A DNA stretch of 64,000 bases, taken from positions 6,529 through 70,528 of the forward strand of contig CAXBPH010000003.1 of NCBI GenBank assembly GCA_963977445.1, given 5' to 3'. Each line of letters opens with the position of its first letter. Positions within the stretch are counted from its first letter, which is position 1. The notes beneath the pieces are model-generated. The model made no database searches, had not been told where the DNA came from, and saw nothing but the letters and a program-made list of their open reading frames with translations. Positions 9,332-63,017 of this stretch are shown here, in pieces. This DNA comes from an uncultured bacterium. Lineage in GTDB: Bacteria; Hydrogenedentota; Hydrogenedentia; Hydrogenedentales; JAEUWI01. The translations under genes and the position numbers were made by a program.

Positions 9332-9385
9332 CAAACGCCGCTCCCAGCGGCACGAAAAACCGGGAGCGACGTTTGTTTTGCTTTC
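9332..9385 (+). terminator. Imperfect hairpin (AAACGCCGCTCCC...GGGAGCGACGTTT) followed by TTTTGCTTT, in the convergent gap between DUF1501 and nirBD
   Basis: Inverted repeat plus T-rich tail seen directly. Confidence 0.3.
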
Positions 9386-9422
9386 CCAGTGATTCACCTT
9401 CTCTGGGAATATGGGTTCGAAG

Positions 9423-12356
9423 TCAGCAGGCGGCGGCGCAGTCCTTTTTCACCTGTCCGATGGCACCGGCCAATTCTTCGGCAGGGGGCAGGTGCAGATA
9501 GACAAAGCCGTCGTTAACTTTTACGTCAAAGGTCGCCACCCGAAGGTTGTCGCCTGAGACGCAAGAGCCGTCTTCGAGAGAGAACTGTTTCTTATGCATG
9601 GGGCAGGCCACCTTCGGCACGCCCTCGTCGTCACCGAGTAATCCACGGGCAAGAACCATGTCTTGCTTGTGGGGACACATATTCTGGGTGGCATACCATT
9701 TATCTTCTTCGCCATAACGAAATACGGCTAACTGCACCCCGCCGTAGCTGACCGCCATGCCCCCCTCTTCCGGGAAGGTACCCACACGTCCGGCTTTCCA
9801 CCAGGACTGGGTCGACCATTCAAAGCCATCGGACGATTTCGCCACAACAGGCCAGTCCACGGGACGTTTCTGGTCGCGCTCTTCCACGTAGCCGATGGTG
9901 GGGTCAGCCTCATCAACGTTGGCAAAGTGCCGGAACAAGGCCCGTTTTTCTGGGTTATTCACCACTTCAGCCCATTCGCACTGGTAGGTATCCACCAGTC
10001 GGGCCATGTCGGCCTCCAGCACTTCGCACAATCCGAGCACATCGCCAATAACGACGTCTTTCAGATGGGCGACGCCACCTTCCAACTTTTCCAACCAGAC
10101 AGAAGTTCGCTGAAGGGGGTCGGCCGTCTGAATGTAATACATGAGAAAGCGGTCGATGTATTTAATGGCCGTTTCCGTGTCGATTTCCGAGGCAAACAAG
10201 TCGGCATGACGGGGTTTGGTACCGCCATTACCGCAGAGGTAAAGATTCCAGCCTTTGTCGGTGGCAATCAGGCCCACATCCTTGCACTGGGCCTCGGCAC
10301 ACTCTCGGACGCAGCCGGACACGGCAAACTTGAGCTTGTGGGGCGAGCGAATGCCGCGATAGCGCTCTTCGATCTCGACAGCGAAGGCGGTGGAGTCCTG
10401 GACGCCATACCGGCACCAGGTCTGGCCTACGCAACTCTTTACGGTACGCACCGACTTACCATAGGCATGACCACTTTCGAAGCCCGCCTCGATGAGCTCT
10501 TCCCAAATGTCAGGAAGCTGCTCCACCCGGGCTCCGAGGAGGTCTACACGCTGGCCGCCGGTAATCTTACAGTAGAGATCATATTTCTTTGCCACCTTAC
10601 CGATGACGATGAGTTTATCGGGGGTTATTTCCCCACCGGGAACGCGGGGTACGACCGAGTAGGTACCCCCTCGTTGGATATTGGCAAGATAACGATCATT
10701 GGTATCCTGAATGGTGGCGTGCTTCACAATGTGGTCATTCCAAAGACTCGCCAGGATGGAGGCCACCACGGGCTTGCAGACTTCGCAGCCCTCGCCGCCG
10801 GTGCCACACCCGGCGAGAATCATCCGAAAGTTTGTGAGCTTCTTCACCTTGACGCTATGGAACAATTCCTGACGACTCATGGGAAAATGGGAGCAGACTA
10901 CCTTCTTCACCACCACACCGGCCCGCTTGAACTCCTCGGCCATAATATCTTTCACCAGGGGAATGCAGCCACCGCAGCCCGTACCAGCGCAGGTAGCACT
11001 CTGCACATCGCCCAAATCACTGAGTTTGTGTTTCCGGATGGCGGTGCAAATTGCCCCTTTACTCACATTATTACAGGAGCAAACCTGGGCGTCATCGGGC
11101 AGAGATGCGGCGCCAGCAGCGCCGTCTCCCCCACTCCCCAGGAGCAGGGTCTTGGGTTCTCCCACAATGCCGTCGAGGCTTCGATAGGTGTGCAGCAATT
11201 TGGCGTAGTCGGAAGTATCCCCCACCAGAATGCCCCCAAGAATCTGGCGGCGGTCCTCGGAGAGAATTATTTTCTTATACACGCCACTGACCGTATCCTT
11301 CACCACCACCGTGTCACTCTTCGGGCCCTCCGTATCAATCGATCCCAGGCTCGCCACTTCCACACCCATCAACTTCAACTTGGTGGACATGTCCGCGCCG
11401 GTAAAGTGGGCCTCATGTCCCATGAGGTTTTCCGCCAGGGTGTCGGCCATCTGGTAACCCGGGCCCACCAAGCCGTAGATCATGCCACCGTGCAGGGCCA
11501 ACTCGCCGATAGCAAAAACGTTGGGATCATTGGTCTGCATCGTATCGTCCACGATGACACCACCCCGTTCGCCTACGGCCAATCCAGACTCCCGGGCCAG
11601 TTCATCCCGTGGTCGGATACCAGCAGAAATGATGAGCATGTCCGTGTCGAGTAAGACATCGTCCATAAAGGTGAGGCCCGTAATCGCGCCGTTCCCTTCG
11701 ATTCGTTTCGTTTGATGCTGAAGCAACACCTTCACGCCGAGGGCTTCAATTTCCCGAACCAACAACTTGGAACCTTCGTCGTCGAGCTGACGGGGCATGA
11801 GTCGCGGGGCGAACTCCACCACGTGTACATCCAACCCCAGGTCGACTACCGCCTTGGCCGCTTCCAGTCCCAAAAGTCCGCCACCAATTACGGTGGCCGT
11901 CTTCGAGTTTTTCGCATAGGCTCTTATGGCATCAAGGTCTTCAATGGTTCGATAGACGAATACGCCTTTTTTATCGACCCCGGCAATGGGCGGCACAAAA
12001 GGTGCCGAGCCCGTAGCAAGTACAAGATAGTCGTAGTGCTCGATGTCACCATCATCGGTAACGATGGTATGGGATTCCCGATCAATCGAAGCCACCCGCT
12101 GACTCGTGTGGAGGGTAACGTCGTTGGCTTCATACCACCCGAGACCATCCAACGTAAGATCTTCGATGGTGTTCGTTCCGAAGTAACTGGTGAGCTGGAC
12201 ACGGTCATAGGCCGGCCGAGGCTCTTCGCCATAAACGACAATATCGTAGTGACTCTTGCCATCGAGTTCTCGGAGTTTTTTGCAGAAACGATGCCCAACC
12301 ATTCCGTTCCCCACCACCACAACTTTCTTTCGAATTATTTCTACGGTTGCTGACAT
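9423..12356 (-). CDS. nirB: Assimilatory NAD(P)H-nitrite reductase, large subunit fused to a C-terminal NirD Rieske domain (NirBD fusion)
   Basis: N-terminal VVVVGNGMVGHRF FAD/NAD fold, BFD-like and nitrite/sulfite reductase siroheme-[4Fe-4S] regions, and a C-terminal CPHKQ...CPMH Rieske-type NirD domain. ORF track starts at 12434; I prefer the ATG at 12356 (MSATVEII). Confidence 0.85.
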   Translation of the reverse strand: MSATVEIIRKKVVVVGNGMVGHRFCKKLRELDGKSHYDIVVYGEEPRPAYDRVQLTSYFGTNTIEDLTLDGLGWYEANDVTLHTSQRVASIDRESHTIVTDDGDIEHYDYLVLATGSAPFVPPIAGVDKKGVFVYRTIEDLDAIRAYAKNSKTATVIGGGLLGLEAAKAVVDLGLDVHVVEFAPRLMPRQLDDEGSKLLVREIEALGVKVLLQHQTKRIEGNGAITGLTFMDDVLLDTDMLIISAGIRPRDELARESGLAVGERGGVIVDDTMQTNDPNVFAIGELALHGGMIYGLVGPGYQMADTLAENLMGHEAHFTGADMSTKLKLMGVEVASLGSIDTEGPKSDTVVVKDTVSGVYKKIILSEDRRQILGGILVGDTSDYAKLLHTYRSLDGIVGEPKTLLLGSGGDGAAGAASLPDDAQVCSCNNVSKGAICTAIRKHKLSDLGDVQSATCAGTGCGGCIPLVKDIMAEEFKRAGVVVKKVVCSHFPMSRQELFHSVKVKKLTNFRMILAGCGTGGEGCEVCKPVVASILASLWNDHIVKHATIQDTNDRYLANIQRGGTYSVVPRVPGGEITPDKLIVIGKVAKKYDLYCKITGGQRVDLLGARVEQLPDIWEELIEAGFESGHAYGKSVRTVKSCVGQTWCRYGVQDSTAFAVEIEERYRGIRSPHKLKFAVSGCVRECAEAQCKDVGLIATDKGWNLYLCGNGGTKPRHADLFASEIDTETAIKYIDRFLMYYIQTADPLQRTSVWLEKLEGGVAHLKDVVIGDVLGLCEVLEADMARLVDTYQCEWAEVVNNPEKRALFRHFANVDEADPTIGYVEERDQKRPVDWPVVAKSSDGFEWSTQSWWKAGRVGTFPEEGGMAVSYGGVQLAVFRYGEEDKWYATQNMCPHKQDMVLARGLLGDDEGVPKVACPMHKKQFSLEDGSCVSGDNLRVATFDVKVNDGFVYLHLPPAEELAGAIGQVKKDCAAAC

Positions 12357-46233: not shown

Positions 46234-47043
46234 TTAGACGGCGTCGGAAACGATTTTCTTTCCGGTAACCGGGCAAACTTTGGCTTCACCTTCGGAAGAA
46301 GCGGCTTTGGCCTTGTCACACTCAGACTTGGCTTTGTCGCAGGTCTTGGCTTCGCCTTCGGAAGAAGCAGCCTTGGCCTTGTCACACTCAGCTTTCGCTT
46401 TGTCACAAGTCTTGGCTTCACCTTCGGAAGAAGCAGCCTTGGCCTTGTCACAAGCGGACTTGGGGCATTCGCCTTCAGAGGAAGCAGCCTTCGCTTTGTC
46501 ACAGGTCTTGGCTTCACCTTCAGAAGAAGCGGCTTTGGCCTTGTCACACTCAGACGTGGCTTTGTCACAGGTCTTGGCTTCGCCTTCGGAAGAAGCAGCC
46601 TTGGCCTTGTCACAGGTCTTGGCTTCACCTTCGGAAGAAGCGGCCTTCGCTTTATCGCACTGCTTCGCTTCACCTTCGGAGGAAGCAGCCTTGGCTACCT
46701 TCGTCTTGCAGCAGCTGGACGCTTCACCTTCAGAGGAAGCCGCCAACGCCTTATCGAAGGTCGCCTGCCGGTCGGCGATCAGCTTGGCTTTCTTTTCGCA
46801 TGGCTGAAAGGCATCTTCATTCGCTGCGGAAACCGTCTGCATGCCGAAGAAGGAGGCAACACTGTTCTTAGCACTCGTGATGGCGCAGGAACCTGATGCT
46901 CCGTTGTTCGCAACAACGCCAGCAGTCGCCACGCCGGATACGACGACCATAGCAGCAACGAAGGATGCCCATTTGCCTTTGTTACGTTTCGGTGCTTGAG
47001 CCGTTTCTTCGGTCACAAGCTCTTCCTGATGTTCTTCGTTCAT
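46234..47043 (-). CDS. Single-pass membrane protein with ~10 tandem 15-aa Cys/Lys/Ala-rich repeats (CDKAKAASSEGEAKT), function unknown
   Basis: Short cytoplasmic N-terminus, TM helix WASFVAAMVVVSGVATAGVVA, then the repeat array with ~17 Cys including C-x6-C and C-x4-C pairs. C-terminus VCPVTGKKIVSDAV. ATG at 47043 has GGAG 9 nt upstream. Shadow ORFs exist in the other frames. Confidence 0.55.
   Translation of the reverse strand: MNEEHQEELVTEETAQAPKRNKGKWASFVAAMVVVSGVATAGVVANNGASGSCAITSAKNSVASFFGMQTVSAANEDAFQPCEKKAKLIADRQATFDKALAASSEGEASSCCKTKVAKAASSEGEAKQCDKAKAASSEGEAKTCDKAKAASSEGEAKTCDKATSECDKAKAASSEGEAKTCDKAKAASSEGECPKSACDKAKAASSEGEAKTCDKAKAECDKAKAASSEGEAKTCDKAKSECDKAKAASSEGEAKVCPVTGKKIVSDAV
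46270..46745. repeat. ~10 tandem copies of a 45-bp coding repeat (with 12-21-bp insert variants)
   Basis: Near-identical units GCTTCACCTTCGGAAGAAGCGGCTTTGGCCTTGTCACA... are visible directly. The repeat is continuous and in frame, so it is not spacer/repeat organised like a CRISPR array. Confidence 0.8.
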
Positions 47044-47562
47044 TGAATATTGCTCCACAAGTGTTTAAATAAGTTACCCATGCAATCTACACGATAAACA
47101 TAGATTCAAAATTGACCCGATTTCATGTCAAAACCTGGAATTATTCGTAGGGTTCAGCATAACAAAAACTCCGCCACTTCGCAATCCTGTCGAAGCGCGC
47201 ATTTCCACGAACCCGAAAGAAATGAAAACAACCTAACCATCTCAATTTAAAGGCGTTACATAAAGTGTGTCTTTAACCCACAATCGCTGGAACGGCTACG
47301 TCGTCAGCTCACCAAGTTTCAATGCAGTGCAATTTGTCCGAAAAATCGCTGAAAACAGGTTGGTTGGCCGAGAACATTCATGAAATAACTGCCCCATAGG
47401 CCATGCCCCCACGAAGCCCCGACTCAACCGGTATTTTGCCGACTTCCGACGATGTTGCCGATGTTTTTGAGGAAGTGGTGGCGGAGTCTTGTGCGGGTGT
47501 CTTGGTGGCTTGGGTCGTTGTCGGTCATCGTCGGCTGCCTTTTAAGATTGCCGAAAAGGGGC

Positions 47563-47766
47563 CTACTCTGCGGGATGCGCAGCCGTGATCGCGACGGGCT
47601 CCGAGGCCTCGCGGCTCTTGCGCATGAGTTCCTGGTCGATCATGCCAAGTTCGGCGGCCAAACCGGCTGCGGCTACGGACAGGCAGGTTTCTTCCACTTC
47701 CGCCGCGTGGCGCATCCATTCGGGAAAAGGAAACGCATCACTTGTGCTATTCATATCCATGGTCAT
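47563..47766 (-). CDS. Small hypothetical protein (67 aa); its start overlaps the stop of the upstream GNAT-like gene by 4 nt
   Basis: ORF only. No motif recognised. The overlap suggests translational coupling. Confidence 0.3.
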   Translation of the reverse strand: MTMDMNSTSDAFPFPEWMRHAAEVEETCLSVAAAGLAAELGMIDQELMRKSREASEPVAITAAHPAE

Positions 47767-48329
47767 AGGTGCCTTTCCAGAATTCTCTCTGCATTGTCGC
47801 GCGAAAGTTCAAAGTACGTCAAGTTTTCGAAATCCACGTCAGGGCCCAACGGTGTCATCCAACACGCCCCTCCGTAGAAGGGTACGGACTGCGGCAAGGC
47901 ATGTAGGCCCACTCGACCTCCAAAGCCTTCGTCCCAGCTTTGCCGGACGGCGCGCTCGAACAGGTGGGGACCAATCAGGCCGTATTTTCGCGTTTGCCCG
48001 ATACCTGGAATGGTCCAGTTCCAAGGGGCGACTTCCAGGAAGTCTATATATACCAGCGGCTTGCCATGATCTTCGCCGAGTTGGGAGAAATGTGTCCCAG
48101 ACTTGGTCAGCATGGCACCCTGCCATTCGTCGTCACAGACCACGGCGAATCCAGATGCAGGAACCAGGCGCAGGTGCTGCGCCTTGGCCCGCCAGTTCCA
48201 GTTGAGGCTCTGGGGTCGCTCGGAATAGGGAAGACCCGCGCGGGCTATTTCGAGAAGGATGCGGGAGCGTTCTGGAGTCCACACCGATTCCAGTGTCAGC
48301 AGGTCTTCAGGCGCGACGAGGAGGGCCAA
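47763..48329 (-). CDS. GNAT-fold acyltransferase-like protein (tentative)
   Basis: 188 aa. VYIDFLEVAPWNW and EGFGGRVGLHAL weakly resemble GNAT motif regions. It sits between the low-GC acpS and the small ORF. Confidence 0.4.
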   Translation of the reverse strand: MALLVAPEDLLTLESVWTPERSRILLEIARAGLPYSERPQSLNWNWRAKAQHLRLVPASGFAVVCDDEWQGAMLTKSGTHFSQLGEDHGKPLVYIDFLEVAPWNWTIPGIGQTRKYGLIGPHLFERAVRQSWDEGFGGRVGLHALPQSVPFYGGACWMTPLGPDVDFENLTYFELSRDNAERILERHL

Positions 48330-48348
48330 GCTGTTCTGCCTTCACGGC

Positions 48349-48732
48349 CTACTCACCCGTTGCGATGGCACTGGCGAAAGCGATTCCGCTCGAATAGCTA
48401 ATACTCACATGCCAATCTAAGATACCGAGCTCATCAGAAAACTTTGCCACGTCATGATTTAGCCTTACATATGGAGCCCCGTTCTTCCCCCGAAGAATTT
48501 CTATTCCATGCCACGTTATTTTTCCAGAAAACCCAGTACCAAGAGCCTTTGCGATGGCCTCCTTTGCGGCGTATCTACCTGCATAGTAACGATAGTGGGC
48601 TGGGGGAGGGTCGGCGGCTTCTCGCTCGTCTATTGAGCAAAAGCAATTGACCCAGCTATTCGTACCTGAGTCAATTTCATTTCTTATACGTTGAATTCTT
48701 TCAATATCGATTCCGTGACCAATGATTCGCAT
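48349..48732 (-). CDS. acpS: Holo-[acyl-carrier-protein] synthase (4-prime-phosphopantetheinyl transferase, AcpS type), low GC and probably island-borne
   Basis: MRIIGHGIDIERIQRI...YAAKEAIAKALGTG...WHVSISYSSGIAFASAIA aligns along its whole length with the AcpS family. The gene is ~40-50% GC in a ~60% GC genome. Confidence 0.85.
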   Translation of the reverse strand: MRIIGHGIDIERIQRIRNEIDSGTNSWVNCFCSIDEREAADPPPAHYRYYAGRYAAKEAIAKALGTGFSGKITWHGIEILRGKNGAPYVRLNHDVAKFSDELGILDWHVSISYSSGIAFASAIATGE

Positions 48733-48740
48733 GCATCCCC

Positions 48741-50624
48741 CTATTTTATTTCTCGAACTACGATATCTCTCTTGTCAAGATCCAGGTCAACAGTTCCGCC
48801 TCCACGAGATTTCAACTCTCTCCAAACTTTGAAGCCCTGCAGGATAGCGCGTTCCCATTCTCCCGTTGTGCATGCTGACACCTCAAGATGAAGGACGGTA
48901 TTCTTTATCATTCGTAACAATTCACTACTGACCGACAATTTACCCTCTAGGAAGTTGTAGTCACGAGCGTAGGCAAAAATCATTGCCGATAGTGCCTCTT
49001 CCGTGACAATCGCCCTTGCACCATCTTCCACTTCGTCAACTTTCGGATCACTCTTTCGCTTCGCTGTGAACATTTTCCTGACGAGTGGAGACCAACCTAG
49101 AACCGCAGCGAAAGACAAATGGATTACATCGTGGAGTCCGTAACCATCGTTCTCGTAAGCGTTGTCAGTCAAGTCATCACCAAACTGCTGACCCTTGTAC
49201 ATCACCCGTATTTTTGGGTTGTTGAATTCGTCATGGTATGTGCTGAAATCGAGTGAAAAACTACGTGGAAATTGTTCATTTTCGGGATATCCTGCATCGA
49301 ACGGAGTTCGCGAAGGTAACGTGCCCCACCGTTCATCACATTTCGCCAAGTTAAGCTCGGCGATCTCCTTCAGATCGAGATTAAACTTCGTGGCGACGTT
49401 TGCCACATACCACAGCAAGTCTCCGAGTTCCTCGCTTAAGCGGTCCTTAAACAATTTATGCGTGTCACCGTCCCGAAGATATTTCTTGTATTCACTCAAC
49501 AATTCACCGGATTCGCTTGCGAGGCCCAACAGAGGAATCGTTAGCGAAGACTCGTCCACACCGGGATTTTGATCTGTCCCGGCAACTTTCTCTTGGTATT
49601 TGCCCATATCCATGGCTCTTGTCTCCAGGTTCACCCCCGTACTCGATCGATTTTCTTCGTTTGAGCTGGTACGGCTGATTAATTCGTTTATGCCCCACTT
49701 GGGTGGGTACCAATAGTCGATTGGTTCTAAAATAGGCTTCAGCTTCTGCTTTATGCGACTTCGCCCTGATTTTCCGACGAATTCTGGATGTACAACTCGC
49801 GCGTACTTGTCTACTTCACAAAACAGGTTTTGGCAATCAATCAATTGAAGCGGCCTTCCCCATAAGTCGGAAAAATCTATGCCCAGTCGATTAAATTCCT
49901 CATCCTGCCTCTCGGTCACCCACCGGATTATTTGTGCAGTATCCTTCTTTCCCGGGTTTAGAAAGCACTTCTGGATTCCATCGAGTGCTCCGGGGCCTGC
50001 GACCACAAAGTCCATTTCAGAGAAGTTAATGATGGTGCTGTAGTTCAAATCGGTAACATACTGATAGGCTAGAAAGTTGCCTATCCCAGGTGATGACCGC
50101 ATTGATTCGAACGCCTCTTCCATGGACTCCGAATCAGCAATTCGTTTCGGTAGCTCCGAAGACATCATGTATTCAAGTAACTTAAGATGGTTCTGGTGTT
50201 TGAATGTTAGCGAAAATTTTCGGACGGAGGGCATTATATAGGCTGCGGAATAGATCCGCTGGCCTCGCGTCATCGCCTGACTTAAGACACGGTCATATGC
50301 CTTGTATGAGTAATCGGCGTATGTGAGATGGCCAAGCTCATTCTCAAGTAGTTTCCATGTATCGATGCGATTGAAAAGTTTGAATAGAATTATGCGAAAA
50401 AACACTTCAGCTGGATGAGTCGGGAGGTCTTCGTTGTATATTACGTTCCTAATGAGATATTGGCTCACTCTGTCAGAGGCTCTGTAGGCGTTCGTGAATT
50501 TGTGGTTTTGAAGCACAGCGTCATCCGTCCACGGAAGAGGGCGCTTACTTATTCGTCGAAAGAAGATTCTCTGTCGCTCGGCGGCGAATTTCCAATACGT
50601 ATCGTATACAGGAGTAGTTTTCAT
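48741..50624 (-). CDS. 627-aa multidomain protein: N-terminal uncharacterised domain (possibly aGPT-pyrophosphorylase-like) plus a central MazG-like NTP pyrophosphohydrolase domain
   Basis: Central ESGELLSEYKK...EELGDLLWYVANVATKFNLDLKEIAELNLAKCDERW matches the MazG EExxE / ELGDxL motifs. The N-terminal 300 aa (MKTTPVYDTYWKFAAERQRIFFRR...PWTDDAVLQNHKFTNAYRASDRVSQYL) reminds me of nucleotide-base hypermodification-associated families, but I cannot verify that here. Confidence 0.6.
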   Translation of the reverse strand: MKTTPVYDTYWKFAAERQRIFFRRISKRPLPWTDDAVLQNHKFTNAYRASDRVSQYLIRNVIYNEDLPTHPAEVFFRIILFKLFNRIDTWKLLENELGHLTYADYSYKAYDRVLSQAMTRGQRIYSAAYIMPSVRKFSLTFKHQNHLKLLEYMMSSELPKRIADSESMEEAFESMRSSPGIGNFLAYQYVTDLNYSTIINFSEMDFVVAGPGALDGIQKCFLNPGKKDTAQIIRWVTERQDEEFNRLGIDFSDLWGRPLQLIDCQNLFCEVDKYARVVHPEFVGKSGRSRIKQKLKPILEPIDYWYPPKWGINELISRTSSNEENRSSTGVNLETRAMDMGKYQEKVAGTDQNPGVDESSLTIPLLGLASESGELLSEYKKYLRDGDTHKLFKDRLSEELGDLLWYVANVATKFNLDLKEIAELNLAKCDERWGTLPSRTPFDAGYPENEQFPRSFSLDFSTYHDEFNNPKIRVMYKGQQFGDDLTDNAYENDGYGLHDVIHLSFAAVLGWSPLVRKMFTAKRKSDPKVDEVEDGARAIVTEEALSAMIFAYARDYNFLEGKLSVSSELLRMIKNTVLHLEVSACTTGEWERAILQGFKVWRELKSRGGGTVDLDLDKRDIVVREIK

Positions 50625-50672
50625 ATTAACCGGCCGAAAGTATACGAGTACAGTGGAGTCATTTTTGTCTTT

Positions 50673-51497
50673 CTAAAAATCGTCATGAATAGGCTCGGAA
50701 ACTGTGCTCGTCACAGATTTGCAAAGTATTTTGTTAGAGCGCGTGATCAAGTCACGTGCATTGCGTACCCCCCAAGGAAATTGTTTTGAATCCTTAATTC
50801 TGGCTGGGCCTTTATCAATTTCGGCATGTGTGGAGACACAGGTGAGCGAACCGACGGTTAGGCCAGCTCGCTCTGCCACAAACGCCTGAAGTTGCCCCAA
50901 ACCGATTAGATTGCCAAGGCACCGAGATATGTACGTGTGGTTACGGTACATTGCTGTAAGCATCAAGCCCTTGTTTGGATGACATTTAAAGCTCAAAAAA
51001 CTGAGGCATTGTCCCCCCCATCGACTACGCCCATCCTCCAAGGGATCGTAAACCGCTAGCTCATATGCCGACTTGAACTTCTGACCACCATTCTCGCGTT
51101 CTTGTAGCTTACCGATCAGCTGTTCTAGTGGATTGTATGTCTTGCCGAGCCTAGTCTGATGCCTGGTCATTCGCTCAAAGTACCTACCCCAGCGCCGGGT
51201 CTTCGTCAGTCTATCGAACGCTTCATGGTATTTCTCGTAGAACACCGGAGCCCCGTGCTGATTGTAGAGTGATTGGGGAAAAATCGTGTTACAGACCGTG
51301 GATATGGGGTAGCAATCGTACTTTCGTAGAAAATCGTCTACCTCTGAAATGATTTCATTGTCAGTTGAATCGAACGATACGGGATTTTCTACATCAACAA
51401 TAACGTTGTATCCCTCATCATTGTGCTTCATGATCTCCATTGCAGCCGCTACCCACGCTCGCGCACAACTCTTCTGTGTCGGGATGGCGATGTACAT
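50673..51497 (-). CDS. Thymidylate-synthase-fold enzyme (ThyA / dCMP-dUMP hydroxymethylase superfamily, divergent)
   Basis: GGQCLSFLSFKCHPNKGLMLTAMYRNHTYISRCLGNLIGLGQLQAFVAERAGLTVGSLTCVSTHAEID aligns with the ThyA core PCHAFFQFYV...[21 protein letters not shown]...VGDFVWTGGDTHLY. QCL sits at the position of the catalytic PCH. Confidence 0.55.
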   Translation of the reverse strand: MYIAIPTQKSCARAWVAAAMEIMKHNDEGYNVIVDVENPVSFDSTDNEIISEVDDFLRKYDCYPISTVCNTIFPQSLYNQHGAPVFYEKYHEAFDRLTKTRRWGRYFERMTRHQTRLGKTYNPLEQLIGKLQERENGGQKFKSAYELAVYDPLEDGRSRWGGQCLSFLSFKCHPNKGLMLTAMYRNHTYISRCLGNLIGLGQLQAFVAERAGLTVGSLTCVSTHAEIDKGPARIKDSKQFPWGVRNARDLITRSNKILCKSVTSTVSEPIHDDF

Positions 51498-51509
51498 AGA
51501 AAGGTCTCC

Positions 51510-52157
51510 CTAATGCGTAATAAATGCGGAAAAGATTCGCGACCCGAGATAACGTTTGCTCAACCAGGCGTAGCCATGAAGGCCCCAGGATTCACCCCAA
51601 CTGTTTCTGATAGCGATATACTTTTCGCTGTTTTTCGTAGCTGTTGCGACGGCAACAACAGCGTGTCGTCGAACCGGGTCGATAGGCTCAGTTGAATCAA
51701 CGATTCCAACGTTGTCCGGGGTATAGAACGCATCTGAGAACGACATCGCGAGGACGACGGGCTTGTCGGTTTGGATGCAGTCCCAAACGGCGTCAAATGT
51801 GGCGGTTAAGGCGCTAGTATGGCATTGGAAAAGTTGCCCTACGTTGTTGGGAGGCTTCCAGTGCGAAATTGGGCTTGGCAATGCCTTGAGGTAGGGCCAG
51901 GCGAGTTCGTTCGGTTGCCCGTCCCCAGTTAATGCAGAGCATACCCCCGGAATGGAAACACCCAAATCTGGAGAGCTTCTCTCCCACTTTATCGCGTAGT
52001 AGTATAGGTACTCACACGACAAGGGTTGCCAATTCCTCTCCAGTGCGGCGGAATGTGCGTCGCTCGTGGCGAACGCCAGGCATGTCGGGCGCGCTCCTTG
52101 ATCGCGAGCGCTGCCAAAATATGGTCGTAGGTCGTGACGGATAATCATCGAACTCAT
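51510..52157 (-). CDS. Papain-like cysteine peptidase (C1A-like, compact, no pro-region)
   Basis: QGARPTCLAFA matches the QG-x-C-G-S-C-W-A-F spacing of the catalytic Cys. HAVVAVA matches the His region. NSWGESWGLHGYAWL matches papain NSWG..WG..GY. Confidence 0.7.
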   Translation of the reverse strand: MSSMIIRHDLRPYFGSARDQGARPTCLAFATSDAHSAALERNWQPLSCEYLYYYAIKWERSSPDLGVSIPGVCSALTGDGQPNELAWPYLKALPSPISHWKPPNNVGQLFQCHTSALTATFDAVWDCIQTDKPVVLAMSFSDAFYTPDNVGIVDSTEPIDPVRRHAVVAVATATKNSEKYIAIRNSWGESWGLHGYAWLSKRYLGSRIFSAFITH

Positions 52158-53167
52158 GGGCGACTCAACATTGCTTGGCGTTGAGCTGGCAGGAGGCCGG
52201 TTTGTAGTGGTCCTGTCAAGTTTACATCAAATTCGAGCGACTGTAGAGATTCATCATCTGAGAGCCATGGTCGCTGTTCACGAAGATTCACGTGACCGAG
52301 TGCCGACTGCTCCGGTTCAGCCACGATCTTACGTTCGACAATACTACCGATTGCATTTTCAGTCGAGCGGGCCTCTCGGATGTCCTCAACTATTTTGAGG
52401 CCGACTTTGGAGAGACTGTCAAACGACCACATGTACCCTGATGAAGCGTGTTCGATCAGCTCGAGAATCACGATGTCGTGCGCGCTTCCTTCAATTAGGA
52501 GCCTTTGATCGCCCATGCCAAGCACCCATATATCCGCATACCATGATTCTGGGGTGTGCTGTTTGGTGAGCTGCTGCTTGATAGATTTTGGTTGGGTTTT
52601 GAGCAGGGAGTCTCGTACTGATTTCGAAATCGCATTGTGCTTGAGGAGCGCATGACAAGTCGCCGCATAGCTTGACCCCATCCGTAAGGCCAATTGGTAG
52701 ACTATTTTCGGAGACGTTAGGTCTGAGCTCGCCCACCCTTGTTGACCCATGTGGTGCGTGATTAGCCATTTCGGTGTAAGCAGTTCGGAGGCAAACGCAT
52801 TTGCCTGCAGTTCTATGAGATCAAGAGCTGCCCCGCTCTCAAACGGAGTTCGGTTTAGCCTGGATTCGTCATCTAGACTAGACGAGTGCCCCATGACCGC
52901 GTGACCCAATTCGTGTGCTGCCGTGAAGCGCTGTACGGAAAGGGGGCGTTGTGTGGTCAACAGAACTCCAGATCCATTTTCTTCCAAATAGCATCCGAGC
53001 AGCCCCTTCATCGGTTGGAACATGACAGGTATGTCGAGAGCTGCGAGAAGTCCAAACACATCGATGCGTCCCACCCCACTCTTTACCTTTTTTTTGACAC
53101 CATGGCTAGCATGTAATCGGTTAGCAGCAAGAGCCGCCTCGAGTATAGCCTTACGAACGTCTGGCAT
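52154..53167 (-). CDS. ImmA/IrrE-family zinc metallopeptidase (COG2856) with a ~190-aa C-terminal domain of unknown function
   Basis: HEXXH in AAHELGHAVMGH, preceded by the typical ImmA helix. Its start overlaps the C1 peptidase gene by 4 nt. Confidence 0.75.
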   Translation of the reverse strand: MPDVRKAILEAALAANRLHASHGVKKKVKSGVGRIDVFGLLAALDIPVMFQPMKGLLGCYLEENGSGVLLTTQRPLSVQRFTAAHELGHAVMGHSSSLDDESRLNRTPFESGAALDLIELQANAFASELLTPKWLITHHMGQQGWASSDLTSPKIVYQLALRMGSSYAATCHALLKHNAISKSVRDSLLKTQPKSIKQQLTKQHTPESWYADIWVLGMGDQRLLIEGSAHDIVILELIEHASSGYMWSFDSLSKVGLKIVEDIREARSTENAIGSIVERKIVAEPEQSALGHVNLREQRPWLSDDESLQSLEFDVNLTGPLQTGLLPAQRQAMLSRP

Positions 53168-53170
53168 AGG

Positions 53171-53551
53171 TCAGCCCCCTTTTTGCGCTTTCCTCGATTT
53201 CAAGAATTCTGCGAATCTGGCGAGTTCGCTGCGATCTTCCGGGGCCAATTCAGATACCTGCCGTGCCAGATGAGCGACTTCCTTGTCAACTGGATGCGTG
53301 TCAGCGGTTTCACCGGTAAAAAAGTTCAGAGACCTCCCGTAGAGTTCGGCTAATTTCTTGAGTTCAAACACTTCAACTTTCCTCAGCCCTGCTTCCATCA
53401 AAGATAGCGCGGAACGAGAAGTACCTACTTTCGTGGCTATTTCGTTCTGGGAGAATCCAACATACTCTCGGGCTTCACGTAGCCGGTCACCAAGTACCTT
53501 TCTATCGCTATCACCTTCAACTTTTTTATTGTTGGGAGCTCTACTACTCAT
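53171..53551 (-). CDS. XRE-family (Cro/C1-type) helix-turn-helix transcriptional regulator
   Basis: LGDRLREAREYVGFSQNEIATKVGTSRSALSLMEAG is the HTH_3 motif. The ATG at 53551 overlaps the stop of the upstream ACP-like gene in an ATGA arrangement. Confidence 0.8.
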   Translation of the reverse strand: MSSRAPNNKKVEGDSDRKVLGDRLREAREYVGFSQNEIATKVGTSRSALSLMEAGLRKVEVFELKKLAELYGRSLNFFTGETADTHPVDKEVAHLARQVSELAPEDRSELARFAEFLKSRKAQKGG

Positions 53552-53868
53552 TTGCTTCCCTTTCTTTTTTCCTCTTCTTGGCACAATTTATCTATACGCA
53601 GCATCATATCGTCAATTGCTTCATCAACACTTTGATAGCCGCCTTTTCGTATAGTCTTGTCTGGAGGTAGTCGAAAACCAACGATTGGCTCGATGGCTAA
53701 CAAAGTGCTTACGACGGCAAAGGAGTCCAAAAGTGGCTCCCAAACCTTGCGCAACAGAGCCCCCTCATCCACAATCTCGTCAAGCTTGTCAGTCAAAACT
53801 GCCCGAATTTCGCAAGAAGTCAAATGAACATCTTCGTCGATTTGAAACGCTGTGGATGTGTTTGCCAT
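53548..53868 (-). CDS. Acyl-carrier-protein-like (phosphopantetheine-binding) small protein
   Basis: LLDSFAVVSTLLAIEPIVGFRLPPDKTI...SVDEAIDDMMLRI parallels ACP helix II/III (DSLDTVELVMALEE...FGIEIPDE...TVGDLVDYI), with Ser in DSF at the 4-prime-PP attachment position. Confidence 0.55.
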   Translation of the reverse strand: MANTSTAFQIDEDVHLTSCEIRAVLTDKLDEIVDEGALLRKVWEPLLDSFAVVSTLLAIEPIVGFRLPPDKTIRKGGYQSVDEAIDDMMLRIDKLCQEEEKRKGSK

Positions 53869-53935
53869 ACCGAATCTCCTGTGCTACTTGGTTAGGATAC
53901 CAAAATTCAGTTGGAAAATCAAACACAAAATATCA

Positions 53936-53958
53936 ATATGTTAGATTTTCTAACATAT
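53936..53958. promoter_or_regulatory. Perfect palindrome ATATGTTAGA-TTT-TCTAACATAT upstream of the island operon; candidate XRE-repressor operator
   Basis: 10-bp arms seen directly, ~70 nt upstream of the ACP-like gene start. A second long dyad (TATAGCCCAGGG...CCCTGGGCTATA) lies at 53961-54024. Confidence 0.45.
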
Positions 53959-54059
53959 GGTATAGCCCAGGGTTTTGCTTGTTCGCGCTTGGGGCGTGAA
54001 CTTGCTGCGCCCTGGGCTATAGTGTGTCACCCCGTTGGGGCTATTCAGATCGCCCTGTA

Positions 54060-54294
54060 CGGATTCGCCGAAGAATGACACTTCGCCCGAAGTGGGCGCC
54101 AGCAACCCCATGAGCACCTTGATGGTCGTGCTCTTACCCGCGCCATTGGGCCCGAGAAGGCCGAAGGCGGCCCCACGCTTTATTTGGAGATTGAGGCCGT
54201 GGACACCATCTCCGTGTTCGTAGGTTTTTACGAGTTCTGAGATTTCGACCACCGACTCGGTCTTCACCGGGGCCTGTTTATCCATAACCTGCAC
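54060..54294 (-). pseudogene. N-terminal fragment of an ABC transporter ATP-binding protein (Walker A GPNGAGKST) with nonsense readthrough after ~78 aa
   Basis: ORF 53950..54294. Homology is recognisable only to ...SGEVSFFGESV; the remaining 35 aa are unrelated junk before the stop. The break coincides with the island boundary. Confidence 0.5.
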
Positions 54295-59521: not shown

Positions 59522-60601
59522 TTACTTCGTCACCAACCGCCCCACGGGATAGCCCGCCGAATAGTCAAATGCCCAACACCCATTGGGCGTGGTGTAGCAA
59601 ATCGTTTCCTTGCGCTCAAAATCGGTCTTGCCCTGCCGCACCGCCGCATCAGGGCTGTCTGGCAACAACTGGGGATCGGCCACGACTTCCAGCATTTTGG
59701 TCGGGTCACCCATCCCATGTCCAGTGCCCGTGAAAATGACGCCATCCAAATCTTTTTCTTCCGGATACCGTGCCACCACGGGCAGTCCCGCCGCCTTCAT
59801 ATTGGCAACCACCACCCGCTTGTCCTCGACCGGACAGACCTCGTCCGTCGCGCCGTGGACCACAAAAATCTGCGTTTCCTGCCCATAGTCTTTCATTTGC
59901 TTGAGGTGGGTGGTCTCCCCGAGATCCCGAAGGACCTGGGCATCGGCCGTAAGATAGGCGGGACTCTCGGGGTCCTGCGAATACCCCGCGTTCAGGGGCG
60001 AACCCCCTTCGAGATTAAAGGCGATGTCATCGCTCAACACGGCCATCCCACAGAAATCGATAATGGCGGCAAAGGTGCGTGGGGCCAGTTTGTTCGCCAT
60101 CTGGGTCACATTGCCTCCGCCCGAATACCCGGTGCAGTAAATTCGACCGGTATGAAAAGCGATGCGCTCCCGTTCCAGCCCGCTATACATCCAATGAAGA
60201 GAACGCAGGGCATCTAAGGCCTGGAGGTAGCCATAGTCATAGGGCGGCATGGTCGTGCCATCATAGGGACCGCTCTGAAGATAGTCCACGCAAATAGCCA
60301 CCACATTATAGCGGTCCGCCAGGGTCTGGGGATCGGGCACGCCGTCCGCATGGGTACCGGTCCAATAATGGAGGGTCAGAAAGAGGCCCGTCTTTTCATT
60401 AATATTCGCCTGCTTCATTCCCGGGTAATACACATAAGCCCGAATCGTCCGGGGACCTTCCTGAAACGCCCATTCCTGTGCCGGGAGCTCCGCCGTGCCA
60501 TTTTCGGCAGGCAAGGGCGGCCAGGGGCGATCGTCGGCGAAGGCACCACAGGCCAGACTCAACACAACAAGGACGATAGGGAATAATGACTTCATGGACA
60601 A
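59522..60601 (-). CDS. Secreted alpha/beta-hydrolase (esterase/lipase-like), paralog 1
   Basis: Signal peptide and the GYSGGGN nucleophile elbow. ~70% identical to the gene at 61944..63017. Confidence 0.7.
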   Translation of the reverse strand: MSMKSLFPIVLVVLSLACGAFADDRPWPPLPAENGTAELPAQEWAFQEGPRTIRAYVYYPGMKQANINEKTGLFLTLHYWTGTHADGVPDPQTLADRYNVVAICVDYLQSGPYDGTTMPPYDYGYLQALDALRSLHWMYSGLERERIAFHTGRIYCTGYSGGGNVTQMANKLAPRTFAAIIDFCGMAVLSDDIAFNLEGGSPLNAGYSQDPESPAYLTADAQVLRDLGETTHLKQMKDYGQETQIFVVHGATDEVCPVEDKRVVVANMKAAGLPVVARYPEEKDLDGVIFTGTGHGMGDPTKMLEVVADPQLLPDSPDAAVRQGKTDFERKETICYTTPNGCWAFDYSAGYPVGRLVTK

Positions 60602-60706: not shown

Positions 60707-61897
60707 CTACCGAAGGCGAAACTCACCAATCAATCCAGGCCGTCGCGCAAGCAAACTCTCTAAGTGACTATCTGCCCACATTTCGATGCGAAGTGCCGAA
60801 TCTGATTGGTTGTGGTTCTCGATTATTTGAATAGCATCTGTGCTGAATCTGCCGGACGTCGCAATAATGTGAACATCAACTCGCGGCGGCTCCCAGAGTT
60901 TCATTTGCTCTCTCAAAGTCGCAATTTCCTTAGCACCGACGCTTTTCGACAGCCAATGCTTGCATTGAATAATCACTCGCAGGCGAAACGTTCCGCCTAG
61001 TTTGTCGAGAAACACTCTTTGGCACGAAAGATCCCGTCCTCTGTCTGACGCGTTCGTCTTAGTAAGCCACTCCGCATTTTCGTAACCTTCGGTTTGCGAT
61101 ATCAGATTGAAAACCAATCTCTCGAAATCATCCTCATCGATGGCTTCCCAGTTTAGCTTGGTTGCGATTTCTCCGACGGGCCTAGCCTTAACTAACTCAC
61201 CCAAATCGTCGACGGCCACCGGTAATGGGTCGGAACTACCGTATAAAATCTCCGTCATCCCCGCGTCGACAGCTGGCCAATCGTGCTTTATTATGTCTCG
61301 AAGATCGCCAATCATACCGTAATGAAGGTGCCTTTTCAGATCACCCCATCTCGGAGGACGCTTGGCACTACTTCCCAAGATAGTATCGATTCTGGAAACA
61401 CTGGAGACCAATACTTCCCAGTCGTCACCGTCGACAGAACCGTTAGCCTCGAGTTTGCTCGGATAGTCTGTGCGAAGACGCGCCAGCGCTAAATTGGCGA
61501 TACGTATCTCTTCAAGTAATGCGTGACGAAATACCGTTCTCCGTGACCTATTCAACCGATAACGGTACTCTTTGAGGTCTTTCTCTGGCGAGAATATGTG
61601 CTCATCTATTATTACGGCACTCTCAAAGTCGCCAATCTCCATGGCGTCAAATCTGAATTGTCCGATTTCATTTAGCTCTAAGAGTGAATCTGGCATTGTC
61701 CATCCATCAATCTTAGGAAGAGCTTCACGTACTTGACGATAATCTCGGCAGCAATCATCGTACACTCCGTCGGTCATGTCCCCGAACGAAACACTTTCAG
61801 GAATCATCGATTTGATCTTTTCCCACAAAGCTTCTAACTTCACAAGATTGGCTTCGGTTGCTTCAAATTGCTTCAATGCATCGTTCAATGAGCTCAT
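60707..61897 (-). CDS. Restriction-endonuclease-like (Mrr-cat type PD-(D/E)xK) domain protein with an uncharacterised N-terminal domain; low GC (~48%)
   Basis: The C-terminal region RGRDLSCQRVFLDKLGGTFRLRVIIQCKHW fits the D-x-G-x-D...Q-x-K pattern of the Mrr catalytic domain. Base composition is far below that of its neighbours. Confidence 0.55.
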   Translation of the reverse strand: MSSLNDALKQFEATEANLVKLEALWEKIKSMIPESVSFGDMTDGVYDDCCRDYRQVREALPKIDGWTMPDSLLELNEIGQFRFDAMEIGDFESAVIIDEHIFSPEKDLKEYRYRLNRSRRTVFRHALLEEIRIANLALARLRTDYPSKLEANGSVDGDDWEVLVSSVSRIDTILGSSAKRPPRWGDLKRHLHYGMIGDLRDIIKHDWPAVDAGMTEILYGSSDPLPVAVDDLGELVKARPVGEIATKLNWEAIDEDDFERLVFNLISQTEGYENAEWLTKTNASDRGRDLSCQRVFLDKLGGTFRLRVIIQCKHWLSKSVGAKEIATLREQMKLWEPPRVDVHIIATSGRFSTDAIQIIENHNQSDSALRIEMWADSHLESLLARRPGLIGEFRLR

Positions 61898-61943: not shown

Positions 61944-63017
61944 TTATTTCGTCACCATCCGCCCCACGGGATAGCCCGCCGAATAGTCGATTTCCCAACA
62001 CCCATTGGGCGTGGTGTAGCAAATCGTTTCCTTGCGCTCAAAGTCGGCCGTACCCTGCCGCACCGCCGCATCGGGGCTGTCCGCAAGCAACTGGGGGTCG
62101 GCCATATGCTGCACAATCTTCGTGCGGTCACCGAGACTGTGACCCGTACCCTTGAACACCACGTCGTCCAAGTGCGCATCGGTCAGGAACAACGCCGTCA
62201 CCGGCATACCCGCCGCCACCATGTTCCGCACCACCTCTTCCTTGTCCGCCACGGGACAAACGTCGTCGGTTGTTCCATGGACCACAAAAATCTTCGTTTC
62301 CTGCCCGTAGTCCACCATCTGCTTCAGGTGGGTGGGATTGCTGAGATCACGCAGGGCCTGGGCGTCGGGGGAGAGGTATTCGGGAGTTGCCGGGTCCTTA
62401 CTGTAGCCCGCGTTAAGCCGTGAGCCCCCTTCGATACCAAAGGCGATATCGTCGCTCAGTTTGGCCATGCCGCACATATCGACAATCGCGGCGAAGGTCC
62501 GGGGCGCAAGCTTATTGACCATCTGGGTCACGTTACCGCCGCCCGAGCCGCCGGTAGAGTAGATACGCCCCGCGTTAAAGGCCGTACCCCCTTCCTGGAG
62601 TCCATTGTAGACCCAATACAGGGCACGAAGCGCATCAAGCCCTTGCAGATAGCCATAGTCATAGGGCGGCATGTCGTCTTCGTATTTGCCGCTCTGAAGA
62701 TAGTCCAGGCAGATGGCAACCGTGTTGTAGCGGTCCGCCAATAGCTGGGGGTCGGCCGTGCCTGACGCATTGGTGCCACCCCAATTGTGGAGGCTGAGGA
62801 AAAGACCCGTGTGTTCGTTCACATTGGCGAGGGCCTTGCCGGGGTAATACACATAGGCCACAAACGTCCGTGGACCGTCCTGAAAGGCCCATTCCTGCGC
62901 GGGGAGTTCCGCCGATGCGTTTTCAGCGGGCAACGCGGGCCAGGGCCGCTCATCGGCGGCATAGGCTGAAATAGAAGCAAGACAGGCCAACAAGGCAAGG
63001 GCGATTCGAAAACGCAT
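61944..63017 (-). CDS. Secreted alpha/beta-hydrolase (esterase/lipase-like), paralog 2
   Basis: Signal peptide MRFRIALALLACLASISAYA and GGSGGGN. The 3-prime ~150 bp is ~90% identical at DNA level to the paralog 1 gene. Confidence 0.7.
   Translation of the reverse strand: MRFRIALALLACLASISAYAADERPWPALPAENASAELPAQEWAFQDGPRTFVAYVYYPGKALANVNEHTGLFLSLHNWGGTNASGTADPQLLADRYNTVAICLDYLQSGKYEDDMPPYDYGYLQGLDALRALYWVYNGLQEGGTAFNAGRIYSTGGSGGGNVTQMVNKLAPRTFAAIVDMCGMAKLSDDIAFGIEGGSRLNAGYSKDPATPEYLSPDAQALRDLSNPTHLKQMVDYGQETKIFVVHGTTDDVCPVADKEEVVRNMVAAGMPVTALFLTDAHLDDVVFKGTGHSLGDRTKIVQHMADPQLLADSPDAAVRQGTADFERKETICYTTPNGCWEIDYSAGYPVGRMVTK

Follow-up and report, generated by a model that had tools for sequence, protein, structure and literature searches.

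A horizontally acquired, probably repressor-controlled bacterial operon encoding a predicted pyrimidine C5-directed enzyme set and a dedicated carrier protein

The subject of this study is a low-GC gene island in a 64,000-nucleotide stretch of DNA (hereafter, the window) from an uncultured bacterium of the Hydrogenedentota, taken from contig CAXBPH010000003.1 of assembly GCA_963977445.1 (positions 6,529 to 70,528 of the forward strand). The island is a seven-gene operon on the minus strand (48349-53868), whose products we number p1 to p7 from the first gene onward. There is firm support for the conclusions that this operon was horizontally acquired, is controlled by a repressor and belongs to a widespread family, and that it encodes a set of enzymes predicted to act at the C5 position of pyrimidines along with a dedicated carrier protein. 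We report its gene content, the folds and conserved catalytic residues of its products, the conservation of both cassette and operator, its horizontal origin, and its homology to phage hypermodification genes and to one component of the anti-phage system DS-4. With regard to function, we tentatively read the operon as an inducible defence against phages or other mobile elements that would remodel uracil nucleotides at C5 by using a phosphopantetheinylated carrier, a reading that we favour while doubting it slightly more than we believe it.

Nine co-directional open reading frames (ORFs) occupy the minus strand of the window at 47563-53868, and a first-pass annotation of the sequence took all nine for one island. 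Only seven belong to it. The two last ORFs, p8 and p9, are host-like in composition (GC 0.58-0.60, and GC at third codon positions (GC3) 0.65-0.69) and are missing from all 80 related loci, which were collected by a scan of representative genomes and of which the 64 with adequate flanks are used for the counts given below. The segment that remains, 48349-53868, is the lowest-GC 5.5-kb stretch of the window, at 48.7% against 56.9% in the remainder and 3.4 standard deviations (SD) under the mean, and its genes have GC3 values of 0.43-0.59 against 0.65-0.75 in the flanking host genes. The low-GC composition described at first pass is thus upheld, and the island as an inserted unit spans about 48349-54045. 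The overlaps and short gaps between the genes were likewise seen on a base-by-base check of the junctions, except that the ATGA overlaps number three rather than four (p1/p2, p3/p4 and p8/p9) and that the remaining gaps, of 3, 12, 48, 8 and 19 nucleotides, include two (12 and 48) that had not been listed.

The enzymes and the carrier protein

The enzyme p5 (50673-51497, minus strand, 274 amino acids) has a thymidylate synthase (TS) fold. TIGR03283 matches it at 1.7e-10, with a score of 40.8 against a cut-off of 174.55, and PF00303 does not match. Searched against the Protein Data Bank (PDB), the p5 family profile has its best match in the CMP hydroxymethylase MilA (4.2e-5), and the catalytic cysteines of the two align. 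An AlphaFold2 (AF2) model with a pLDDT of 88.1 was compared with the PDB by Foldseek, and all 50 matches listed were ThyA, MilA or two TS-fold dCMP hydroxylase entries at probability 1.00; in a library of viral structures the matches were mostly TS or dCMP hydroxymethylase, with some unnamed. The candidate catalytic residue, Cys164, lies in GQCLS, and the Q-C-L variant noted at first pass is found at 163-165. Invariant in the family are Cys164, Asn196, Tyr106-Phe107-x-Arg109 and Asp155, and in the subtype of the cassette that carries a C1 peptidase the family numbers 1738 TS-like clusters.

Asn196 of p5 aligns with an aspartate of MilA, at the position of ThyA Asn177. Because this residue is Asn, as in the uracil-specific ThyA, and not Asp, p5 probably acts on a uracil nucleotide and not on a cytosine nucleotide. 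For the same reason, the analogy with bacimethrin and mildiomycin biosynthesis that was drawn at first pass holds only in part, being weakened at the specificity residue although MilA is the best solved relative of the family. The TS fold, catalytic Cys and uracil-type Asn make p5 a candidate dUMP hydroxymethylase.

Three Pfam domains make up p6 (48741-50624, minus strand, 627 amino acids), namely HMUDK_hel at residues 4-282 (2.5e-114), MazG at about 366-432 (5.4e-6) and MazG_C at 440-625 (8.3e-70). The MazG core had been recognized before and its motifs are intact (ESGELLSE, 371-378; EELGD, 398-402). The large N-terminal domain had been considered unassigned, which is not the case; it is the domain resembling the phage 'clade-1 aGPT-Pplase'. 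Homologues of p6 form more than 8000 clusters at 90% identity, and the 120 listed all carry HMUDK_hel and MazG_C, most of them also a MazG match, and are 60-69% identical, the window's own copy aside. In most phyla the protein is split as two genes. A PDB search with p6 matched only MazG structures, and its AF2 model is poor (pLDDT 65, pTM 0.41), with the fold search again giving MazG matches only.

Homologues of HMUDK_hel are also present in 494 phage records, and those sampled include ViI-like and Pseudomonas phages. In the two phage regions inspected, the HMUDK_hel gene shares a cluster with a TS gene, which gives substance to the link with phage pyrimidine hypermodification that the first-pass annotation had proposed. 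The gene in phage Sonora lies between a nucleotide-kinase gene on one side and Nmad5 and TS genes on the other, and the cluster contains a second aGPT-Pplase. The HMUDK_hel gene of phages corresponds to the second 'aGPT-Pplase' paralogue. Its motif CExDK (p6 269-273) is invariant across the bacterial, DS-4 and phage members, and by analogy it echoes the Cys and neighbouring Glu that are catalytic in clade-2 Pplases, enzymes with a C5 exocyclic methylene intermediate that a thiol can trap (PMC8989533). For phage M6, gp55 was one component of a mixture of five lysates, and the combination of gp54 with gp51 sufficed in its absence (PMC8989533); gp55 may be the HMUDK_hel paralogue of this phage. 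Both HMUDK_hel ('clade-1 Pplase') and MazG_C are orphan domains in phage hypermodification too, and the cassette offers a bacterial context in which they can be studied.

The first gene of the operon encodes p1 (53548-53868, minus strand, 106 amino acids), a carrier protein resembling acyl carrier proteins (ACPs). The family profile gave 118 PDB matches (best 2.7e-6), and the 60 shown are ACPs or complex-I ACP subunits, bar one unnamed; in the two alignments printed, the serine of the profile pairs with the ACP DS motif. This serine, Ser49 in LDS (47-49), is the predicted site of phosphopantetheine attachment, and only Pro45 and Ser49 are invariant in the family alignment. Four of 19 family members match Pfam PP-binding. 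On its own, p1 has no match in Pfam, PADLOC or PHROGs and only a weak ACP match in NCBIfam (NF005480, E = 0.013).

At the other end of the operon, p7 (48349-48732, minus strand, 127 amino acids) is an AcpS-type (group I) 4'-phosphopantetheinyl transferase (PPTase). It matches Pfam ACPS at 2.9e-16 and both TIGR00516 and TIGR00556 above their cut-offs, and in the PDB it aligns with holo-ACP synthases (best 1.5e-13), the GxD and AAKEAxxKALGTG motifs included. Its GC of 0.47 and GC3 of 0.43 are island-like, and there is no other acpS within the window. With Ser49 aligned to the ACP motif and p7 a canonical AcpS, the earlier call of a carrier protein with a dedicated PPTase stands. The suggestion that a GNAT-like ORF is a partner of AcpS was not borne out, as that ORF (p8) lies outside the island and is absent from the related loci.

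Fatty-acid synthase, polyketide synthase and non-ribosomal peptide synthetase systems resemble the cassette in having a carrier with a conserved serine and a PPTase, but they also have loading and condensing partners. No adenylation, acyltransferase, ketosynthase or condensation enzyme was found in the window cassette or in a typical cassette from another genome (L010; related loci are cited by such numbers where needed). A description of a carrier/PPTase cassette of this kind was not found in the literature, in a search that left out Iyer 2013 (PMC3763556) and Burroughs 2015 (PMC4678834), and Kaur 2020 makes no mention of these domains. The first-pass statement that no described system combines such enzymes with a carrier/PPTase pair therefore agrees with both our literature searches and PADLOC.

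Regulators, operator and the peptidase pair

The second and third genes of the operon, in the window as in the related loci, encode a repressor and a peptidase and are co-directional with the rest. The repressor p2 (53171-53551, minus strand, 126 amino acids) is an XRE-family helix-turn-helix (HTH) protein (Pfam HTH_31, 6.7e-12; HTH_3, 3.2e-11) that matches the PADLOC capH model at 3.5e-15 over profile positions 4-101 of 103. Its ATG overlaps the p1 stop codon as ATGA, and its ORF also extends to a GTG at 53584. The N-terminal part of p3 (52154-53167, minus strand, 337 amino acids) is an ImmA/IrrE (M78) metallopeptidase, with matches to Peptidase_M78 (9.2e-11) and PADLOC capP (4.7e-16) and with HELGH at 85-89. 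These matches agree with the CapH/CapP-like pair proposed at first pass.

The resemblance to CapH/CapP extends to a palindromic operator at the promoter, in addition to the pairing of an XRE repressor with an M78 HExxH peptidase (10.1101/2022.04.27.489752; PMC13228613). The arrangement is different, however. The CapH/CapP pair lies upstream of its operon on the opposite strand (10.1101/2022.04.27.489752), whereas here the two genes are embedded in the operon behind the carrier gene. Moreover, CapP has a GAF domain that senses single-stranded DNA, and p3 of the window instead has a chagasin-like domain and no GAF match.

The carrier gene is preceded by the promoter and operator region (53894-53958, minus strand). 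Box 1, at 53936-53958, has the palindromic sequence ATATGTTAGAAAATCTAACATAT, and box 2, TGTTTGATTTTC at 53914-53925, overlaps a -35-like TTGATT (53917-53922) that is followed, after a 17-nucleotide spacer, by a -10-like TATCCT (53894-53899). The forms GTnnGAAAATCnnAC and TTTGATTTTCnnAC of these boxes, and the form TAnnnT of the -10-like element, are shared upstream of the carrier gene. Boxes and -35/-10 spacing are kept in the window and in L001, L002, L003, L083 and L084, where the proteins are just 40-65% identical. Exact matches to GAAAATCNRACA occur only twice in the 64-kb window, both at the operator and in inverted orientation. Consensus scans for sigma-70 promoters and terminators performed no better than on shuffled sequence. 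The conservation of the operator and the exclusive GAAAATCNRACA pair fit an autoregulated operon to which p2 would bind.

The C-terminal region of p3 carries a chagasin-like (I42) domain at about residues 230-306, with GYMW at 244-247 and RPW at 299-301. Its match to Inhibitor_I42 (5.8e-5) is below the Pfam cut-off, and the best solved relative of the C-terminal 137 amino acids is amoebiasin-2 (3m86; E = 0.006), aligned over almost the whole length of amoebiasin-2. Directly following is p4 (51510-52157, minus strand, 215 amino acids), a compact papain-family (C1) cysteine peptidase that matches Peptidase_C1 at 1.7e-11 over residues 121-201. Its PDB matches are papain-family enzymes, the best being ervatamin B (3.6e-8), and the His and NSWG segments align with these and also with cathepsins. 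The candidate triad is Cys26, His165 and Asn185, where Cys26 was read directly off the sequence from TCLAF (25-29). Judging by its length alone, p4 appears to lack a pro-region or N-terminal extension, and it is probably a cytoplasmic form. Its homologues form 887 clusters, and the 120 listed are 211-253 amino acids long, nearly all of them 211-218.

A C1 peptidase occupies this position of the cassette in L001-L003, L007, L083 and L084, and an ImmA protein with a long C terminus and a C1 peptidase always occur together (L001-L003, L007, L068, L083 and L084). We also considered the peptidase as a processing protease of the fused p6, an idea that was rejected since fused p6 is found without the peptidase in L004-L006, L023, L025, L028 and L034. 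Like the known pairs of I42 inhibitor and C1 peptidase, the present candidate pair has GYxW and RPW in its inhibitor-like domain, and the two adjoin each other. It differs in that an ImmA metallopeptidase carries this domain, within a repressor-controlled operon, and in that the peptidase has only 215 amino acids. Literature searches found no description of an ImmA-chagasin fusion, and to our knowledge none exists of such a fusion beside a C1 peptidase in a repressor-controlled operon. This arrangement suggests a new proteolytic way to gate an immune operon.

Relatives of the cassette and its possible function

When hidden Markov models built for the families were run against all ORFs of the related loci, 49 of the 64 loci were found to have carrier, HTH, ImmA, TS-like, HMUDK_hel, MazG and MazG_C with gene order and strand preserved. 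A small protein stands at the p1 position in 54 of the 64. Of the 49 full cassettes, 38 have an AcpS gene no more than 5 kb away, often convergent and directly 3', and among the 42 of 64 loci with AcpS beside the cassette, 41 also have the carrier. The loci span at least eight phyla, with representatives in Planctomycetota, Cyanobacteria, Alpha-, Beta- and Gammaproteobacteria, Bacteroidota, Acidobacteria, Chloroflexi, Verrucomicrobia and Gemmatimonadota-type metagenome-assembled genomes (MAGs). The nearest relatives of the window cassette are in Planctomycetota MAGs, and a cyanobacterial copy has the same Pfam content. Co-occurrence of the genes in other genomes had been put forward at first pass as a check, and the cassette is conserved.

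The cassettes vary around this core. A dCTP-deaminase/dUTPase-fold protein with a hydrophobic C-terminal tail (a membrane protein) is encoded at 25 of the 64 loci, for example at L001 12288-13094 and L030 12304-13143, and cyanobacterial copies have DUF1643 in its place; neither protein has a PADLOC model match, and neither is present in the window. Variant cassettes in L059, L060 and L078 (at about 9200-12100 of each locus) retain the carrier, HTH, ImmA, TS-like and HMUDK_hel genes and have a second TS, of 350 amino acids and DS-4 type (TS350), in place of MazG/MazG_C, which suggests modular exchange around an HMUDK_hel core. Some variant cassettes abut TIR and Nmad genes. The set of HTH, ImmA, TS-like, HMUDK_hel, MazG/MazG_C and AcpS is also found in culturable organisms, namely Bradyrhizobium centrosematis LMG 29515 (L056), Sphingomonas floccifaciens (L019), Mucilaginibacter sp. 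SP1R1 (L029) and Shinella sumterensis (L041), so that experiments are feasible.

The exact seven-gene layout of the C1 subtype recurs in two independent assemblies (L083, 8290-16795; L084, 833-13889). Both of these cassettes lie near genes for homoserine dehydrogenase and a phosphoglycerate-mutase-like protein, which hints at a preferred integration site, and in L083 an excisionase-like HTH_17 gene and a gene for a 509-amino-acid integrase lie between those genes, and a transposase also adjoins the cassette. The surroundings of the cassette vary between genomes, with integrase, AbiEii, N6_Mtase and HipA genes among them. The low GC and GC3, the variable flanks, the integrase and transposase of L083, and the truncated genes on both sides of the island in the window together indicate mobility.

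A distant relative with validated anti-phage activity is DS-4 ('NTTI'), an E. coli system reported with DefensePredictor (Science 2026) that consists of TS, dNMP kinase, HMUDK_hel, TIR and Nmad2; among the defence systems that the same work predicted and did not validate are operons of MazG, MazG-C and aGPT-Pplase (PMC13092281). The HMUDK_hel protein of DS-4 shares CExDK with p6 and aligns with its N-terminal domain at 29% identity (E = 7e-29), and each system has a TS-fold protein. However, the TS of DS-4 is a 361-amino-acid canonical type, and BLAST detects no similarity between it and p5 (E = 0.95). DS-4 also adds the kinase, TIR protein and Nmad2, domains that are missing from the window cassette, and lacks the MazG, MazG_C, carrier, AcpS, HTH/ImmA and C1 peptidase found here. 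Genes of the DS-4 type for TS350, TIR and Nmad are sometimes beside or inside variant cassettes (L059, L060, L066, L070 and L078). Profile and structure searches confirmed nearly all of the domain calls made at first pass (XRE HTH, Peptidase_M78, Peptidase_C1, MazG, ACPS, TS-fold and ACP-like), but that inventory missed the chagasin-like domain on ImmA, the conserved operator and the validated relative DS-4 (PMC13092281).

Thymidine hypermodification clusters of phages (M6, ViI, PaMx11 and SH-Ab 15599; PMC8989533, PMC13458397) provide the other point of comparison. In common with the cassette family they have an enzyme of the TS-fold hydroxymethylase class (in the cassette a predicted activity), an NTP pyrophosphatase, which in the phages depletes dTTP or dUTP, a dCMP/dCTP deaminase and a paralogue of the HMUDK_hel or 'aGPT-Pplase clade 1' protein. 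They differ in having a P-loop 5-hydroxymethyldeoxyuridine (5-hmdU) DNA kinase and a clade-2 Pplase, which are the post-replicative enzymes that have been demonstrated. None of the cassette proteins has a P-loop kinase domain, and the only aGPT-Pplase there is the HMUDK_hel-type paralogue, with none of clade 2. The cassette, for its part, is bacterial and repressor-controlled and has a carrier and PPTase that do not appear in the phage regions inspected or in PMC8989533 and PMC13458397. It is distinguished by its carrier/PPTase pair and by the pairing of ImmA-chagasin with a C1 peptidase.

If the operon is an inducible defence, its action might proceed as follows. The repressor p2 would bind the two promoter-overlapping operator boxes upstream of the carrier gene and keep the operon off. 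A damage or infection signal would activate the M78 peptidase p3, which would cleave p2 as CapP does CapH, and in this subtype the chagasin-like domain of p3 would hold p4 inactive until then, as a second proteolytic layer. Once the operon is expressed, the MazG domain might hydrolyse a (d)NTP, p5 would attack C6 of a uracil nucleotide via Cys164 and modify C5, and HMUDK_hel, with its Cys269-Glu270 pair, and MazG_C may further process the p5 product. AcpS (p7) would convert p1 to the holo form, and the phosphopantetheine thiol could tether or accept an intermediate or act as a handle or nucleophile. Either the normal supply of dTTP would be lost, or aberrant nucleotides or DNA bases would be made, and replication of the invader would be blocked. 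The defence function, the inducing signal, all substrates and products and the role of the carrier are predictions.

One specific form of this proposal, which we consider improbable, has the thiol of holo-p1 attacking a C5 exocyclic-methylene intermediate supplied by the TS-fold enzyme or by the Cys-Glu pair of HMUDK_hel. The resulting carrier-tethered nucleotide or protein-DNA adduct would be the immune effector step, and the chagasin-gated papain-like peptidase would serve as a layer of proteolytic licensing. A carrier-tethered pyrimidine, if true, would be the first phosphopantetheine-dependent nucleobase chemistry.

Several points weigh against an immune function exerted through C5 chemistry. 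The chemistry of the cassette is a prediction from its genes, as are the substrate and any folate binding of p5. The poor AF2 model of p6 gives no fold assignment for HMUDK_hel or MazG_C. The cassette has no enzyme for loading the carrier, so the role of the carrier is a guess, and 11 of the 49 full cassettes have no nearby AcpS. Profiling of the flanks found no strong enrichment of defence genes, and because defence-related genes turn up beside the cassette only now and then, a clear defence-island signal is missing. Models for the effector genes are absent from PADLOC (2023), which recognizes the regulators only. Unlike CapH and CapP, the regulators are embedded and co-directional, and the place of the CapP GAF domain is taken in p3 by a chagasin-like one. 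HTH/ImmA pairs also run prophages, integrative and conjugative elements (ICEs) and the Deinococcus damage regulon, so that regulators alone are not proof of immunity.

The most serious competing explanation, although an unlikely one, is a self-DNA modification module carried on a mobile element, which would be switched at induction or transfer in the manner of ImmR/ImmA and would, like phages, hypermodify or replace thymine in the DNA of the element or of its host to evade restriction or to mark self. Homologues of HMUDK_hel are indeed phage thymidine-hypermodification genes, and the enzyme classes match the pre-replicative toolkit of phages, comprising dUMP hydroxymethylase, dTTPase/dUTPase and dCMP/dCTP deaminase (PMC13458397). 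An integrase adjoins the L083 copy, and ImmR/ImmA pairs control the induction of ICEs and prophages (10.1101/2022.04.27.489752). Yet neither a P-loop 5-hmdU DNA kinase nor a clade-2 Pplase accompanies the cassette, genes for DNA polymerase, replication or transfer are likewise missing, and the cassette usually stands alone among ordinary chromosomal genes; its relative DS-4, moreover, is validated as defensive (PMC13092281). We give a low probability to a DNA-damage regulon of the IrrE/DdrO type with no phage role, where an alternative TS supplies dTMP and MazG cleans up aberrant dNTPs. M78/XRE pairs do control Deinococcus damage responses, according to PMC12828697, and MazG enzymes are described as house-cleaning NTP pyrophosphohydrolases in PMC3855555. 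The TS fold of p5, with Asn at the uracil-specificity position, would suit this explanation, but p5 is far from a bona fide ThyA by both its missing PF00303 match and its TIGR03283 score. Such a regulon would leave the carrier, AcpS, HMUDK_hel and the C1 peptidase with its inhibitor without a role, and the patchy distribution, foreign GC and variable flanks are unlike those of a housekeeping stress function.

Also distinctly improbable is the idea that the cassette uses its carrier to make a hydroxymethyl-pyrimidine nucleoside or base resembling bacimethrin or mildiomycin, a diffusible antimetabolite directed against competitors. A carrier protein with a PPTase is a hallmark of secondary-metabolite pathways, and the best solved relative of the p5 family is MilA, which like BcmA is a CMP hydroxymethylase of such a pathway and which has the TS fold, with its catalytic Cys aligned. 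The specificity residue is nevertheless the Asn of ThyA, and the glycosidase, methyltransferase and kinase partners of those pathways are missing: the cassette has no N-glycosidase, methyltransferase, ThiD-like kinase, loading or condensation enzyme, or exporter. Control by a phage-type repressor and protease would be unusual for a metabolite cluster, and the cassette is highly compact and varies little between phyla. The idea of a chance neighbourhood of housekeeping thyA, mazG, acpS and acpP genes with odd composition retains hardly any probability. Every domain family has housekeeping members, but recurrence of the same gene order in 49 of 64 loci from at least eight phyla argues that the grouping is not due to chance, and this recurrence and the GC of the island refute it; the promoter and operator are conserved as well. 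No effector reaches a housekeeping equivalog cut-off, generic AcpS domain models aside. The lack of a PF00303 match, a TIGR03283 score far below its cut-off and flanks that vary between genomes likewise set the TS-like and MazG-like proteins apart from housekeeping ThyA and MazG.

The operon family has thousands of members in at least eight phyla, yet it is absent from catalogues of defence systems. Its cassette joins three elements so far known only apart, namely predicted phage-style pyrimidine C5 chemistry, the damage-sensing repressor/peptidase switch of immune operons, and a dedicated carrier and PPTase. If it is defensive, nucleotide-based immunity would extend past depletion and chain terminators, and the cassette would shed light on DS-4, for which validation in 2026 came without a mechanism.

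Flanks of the island and other features of the window

The island is flanked by truncated genes on both sides, since an ABC ATPase fragment lies on one side and the p8/p9 remnant on the other. The ABC ATPase fragment (53950-54294, minus strand) is outside the system and covers only positions 2-66 of 137 of the ABC_tran profile. Its homology ends at about residue 80, near nucleotide 54048 (NCBIfam matches stop at residues 79-82), so the truncated gene that the first-pass annotation placed at the island boundary is confirmed, with only its N-terminal part retained. An inverted repeat at 53961-54021, with perfect 12-nucleotide outer arms TATAGCCCAGGG and CCCTGGGCTATA, is located directly where the ABC ATPase homology stops. 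It could be a terminator-like hairpin or the end of an element, and it has no second copy within the window. The missing part of the ABC ATPase gene was not found across the island on the other side, and no att-like direct repeats, tRNA genes or integrase mark the island ends within the window.

On the other side, p8 and p9 (47563-48329, minus strand) are the remnant of a separate three-gene module composed of a small gene, a GNAT-like gene and another small gene. p8 has 188 amino acids, a TTG start and no ribosome-binding site, and p9 has 67 amino acids; neither has a match in PADLOC, NCBIfam or PHROGs. The p8 family comprises about 930 representative clusters, typically of about 208 amino acids, and homologues align from about their own residue 25. 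In the window, p8 is some 20 residues short at its N terminus, and the small gene upstream of it in the module is also missing. Homologues sit between two small overlapping genes, as in L085, and the contig of one homologue (L086) also encodes a TrwC relaxase. Because only weak Acetyltransf_10 (GNAT) matches were obtained, in 12 of 30 family members, the label 'GNAT-like' is weakly supported. The layout of the three-gene module resembles that of a toxin-antitoxin module.

Two further features of the window were noted. A second low-GC segment (0.47-0.50) at 60707-61897 on the minus strand encodes a 396-amino-acid protein with a C-terminal Mrr_cat restriction-endonuclease domain, and its gene sits between paralogous DUF2920/Peptidase_S9 genes at 59522-60601 and 61944-63017. 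This segment lies some 7 kb away from the island and may represent a further small insertion of defence type. Finally, a gene at 46234-47058 on the minus strand encodes a 274-amino-acid protein without a Pfam match, in which a hydrophobic N-terminal segment is followed by tandem repeats. The DNA has periods of 45, 66 and 162 at 46280-46696, and the repeats include Cys-containing units such as CDKAKAASSEGEAKT.

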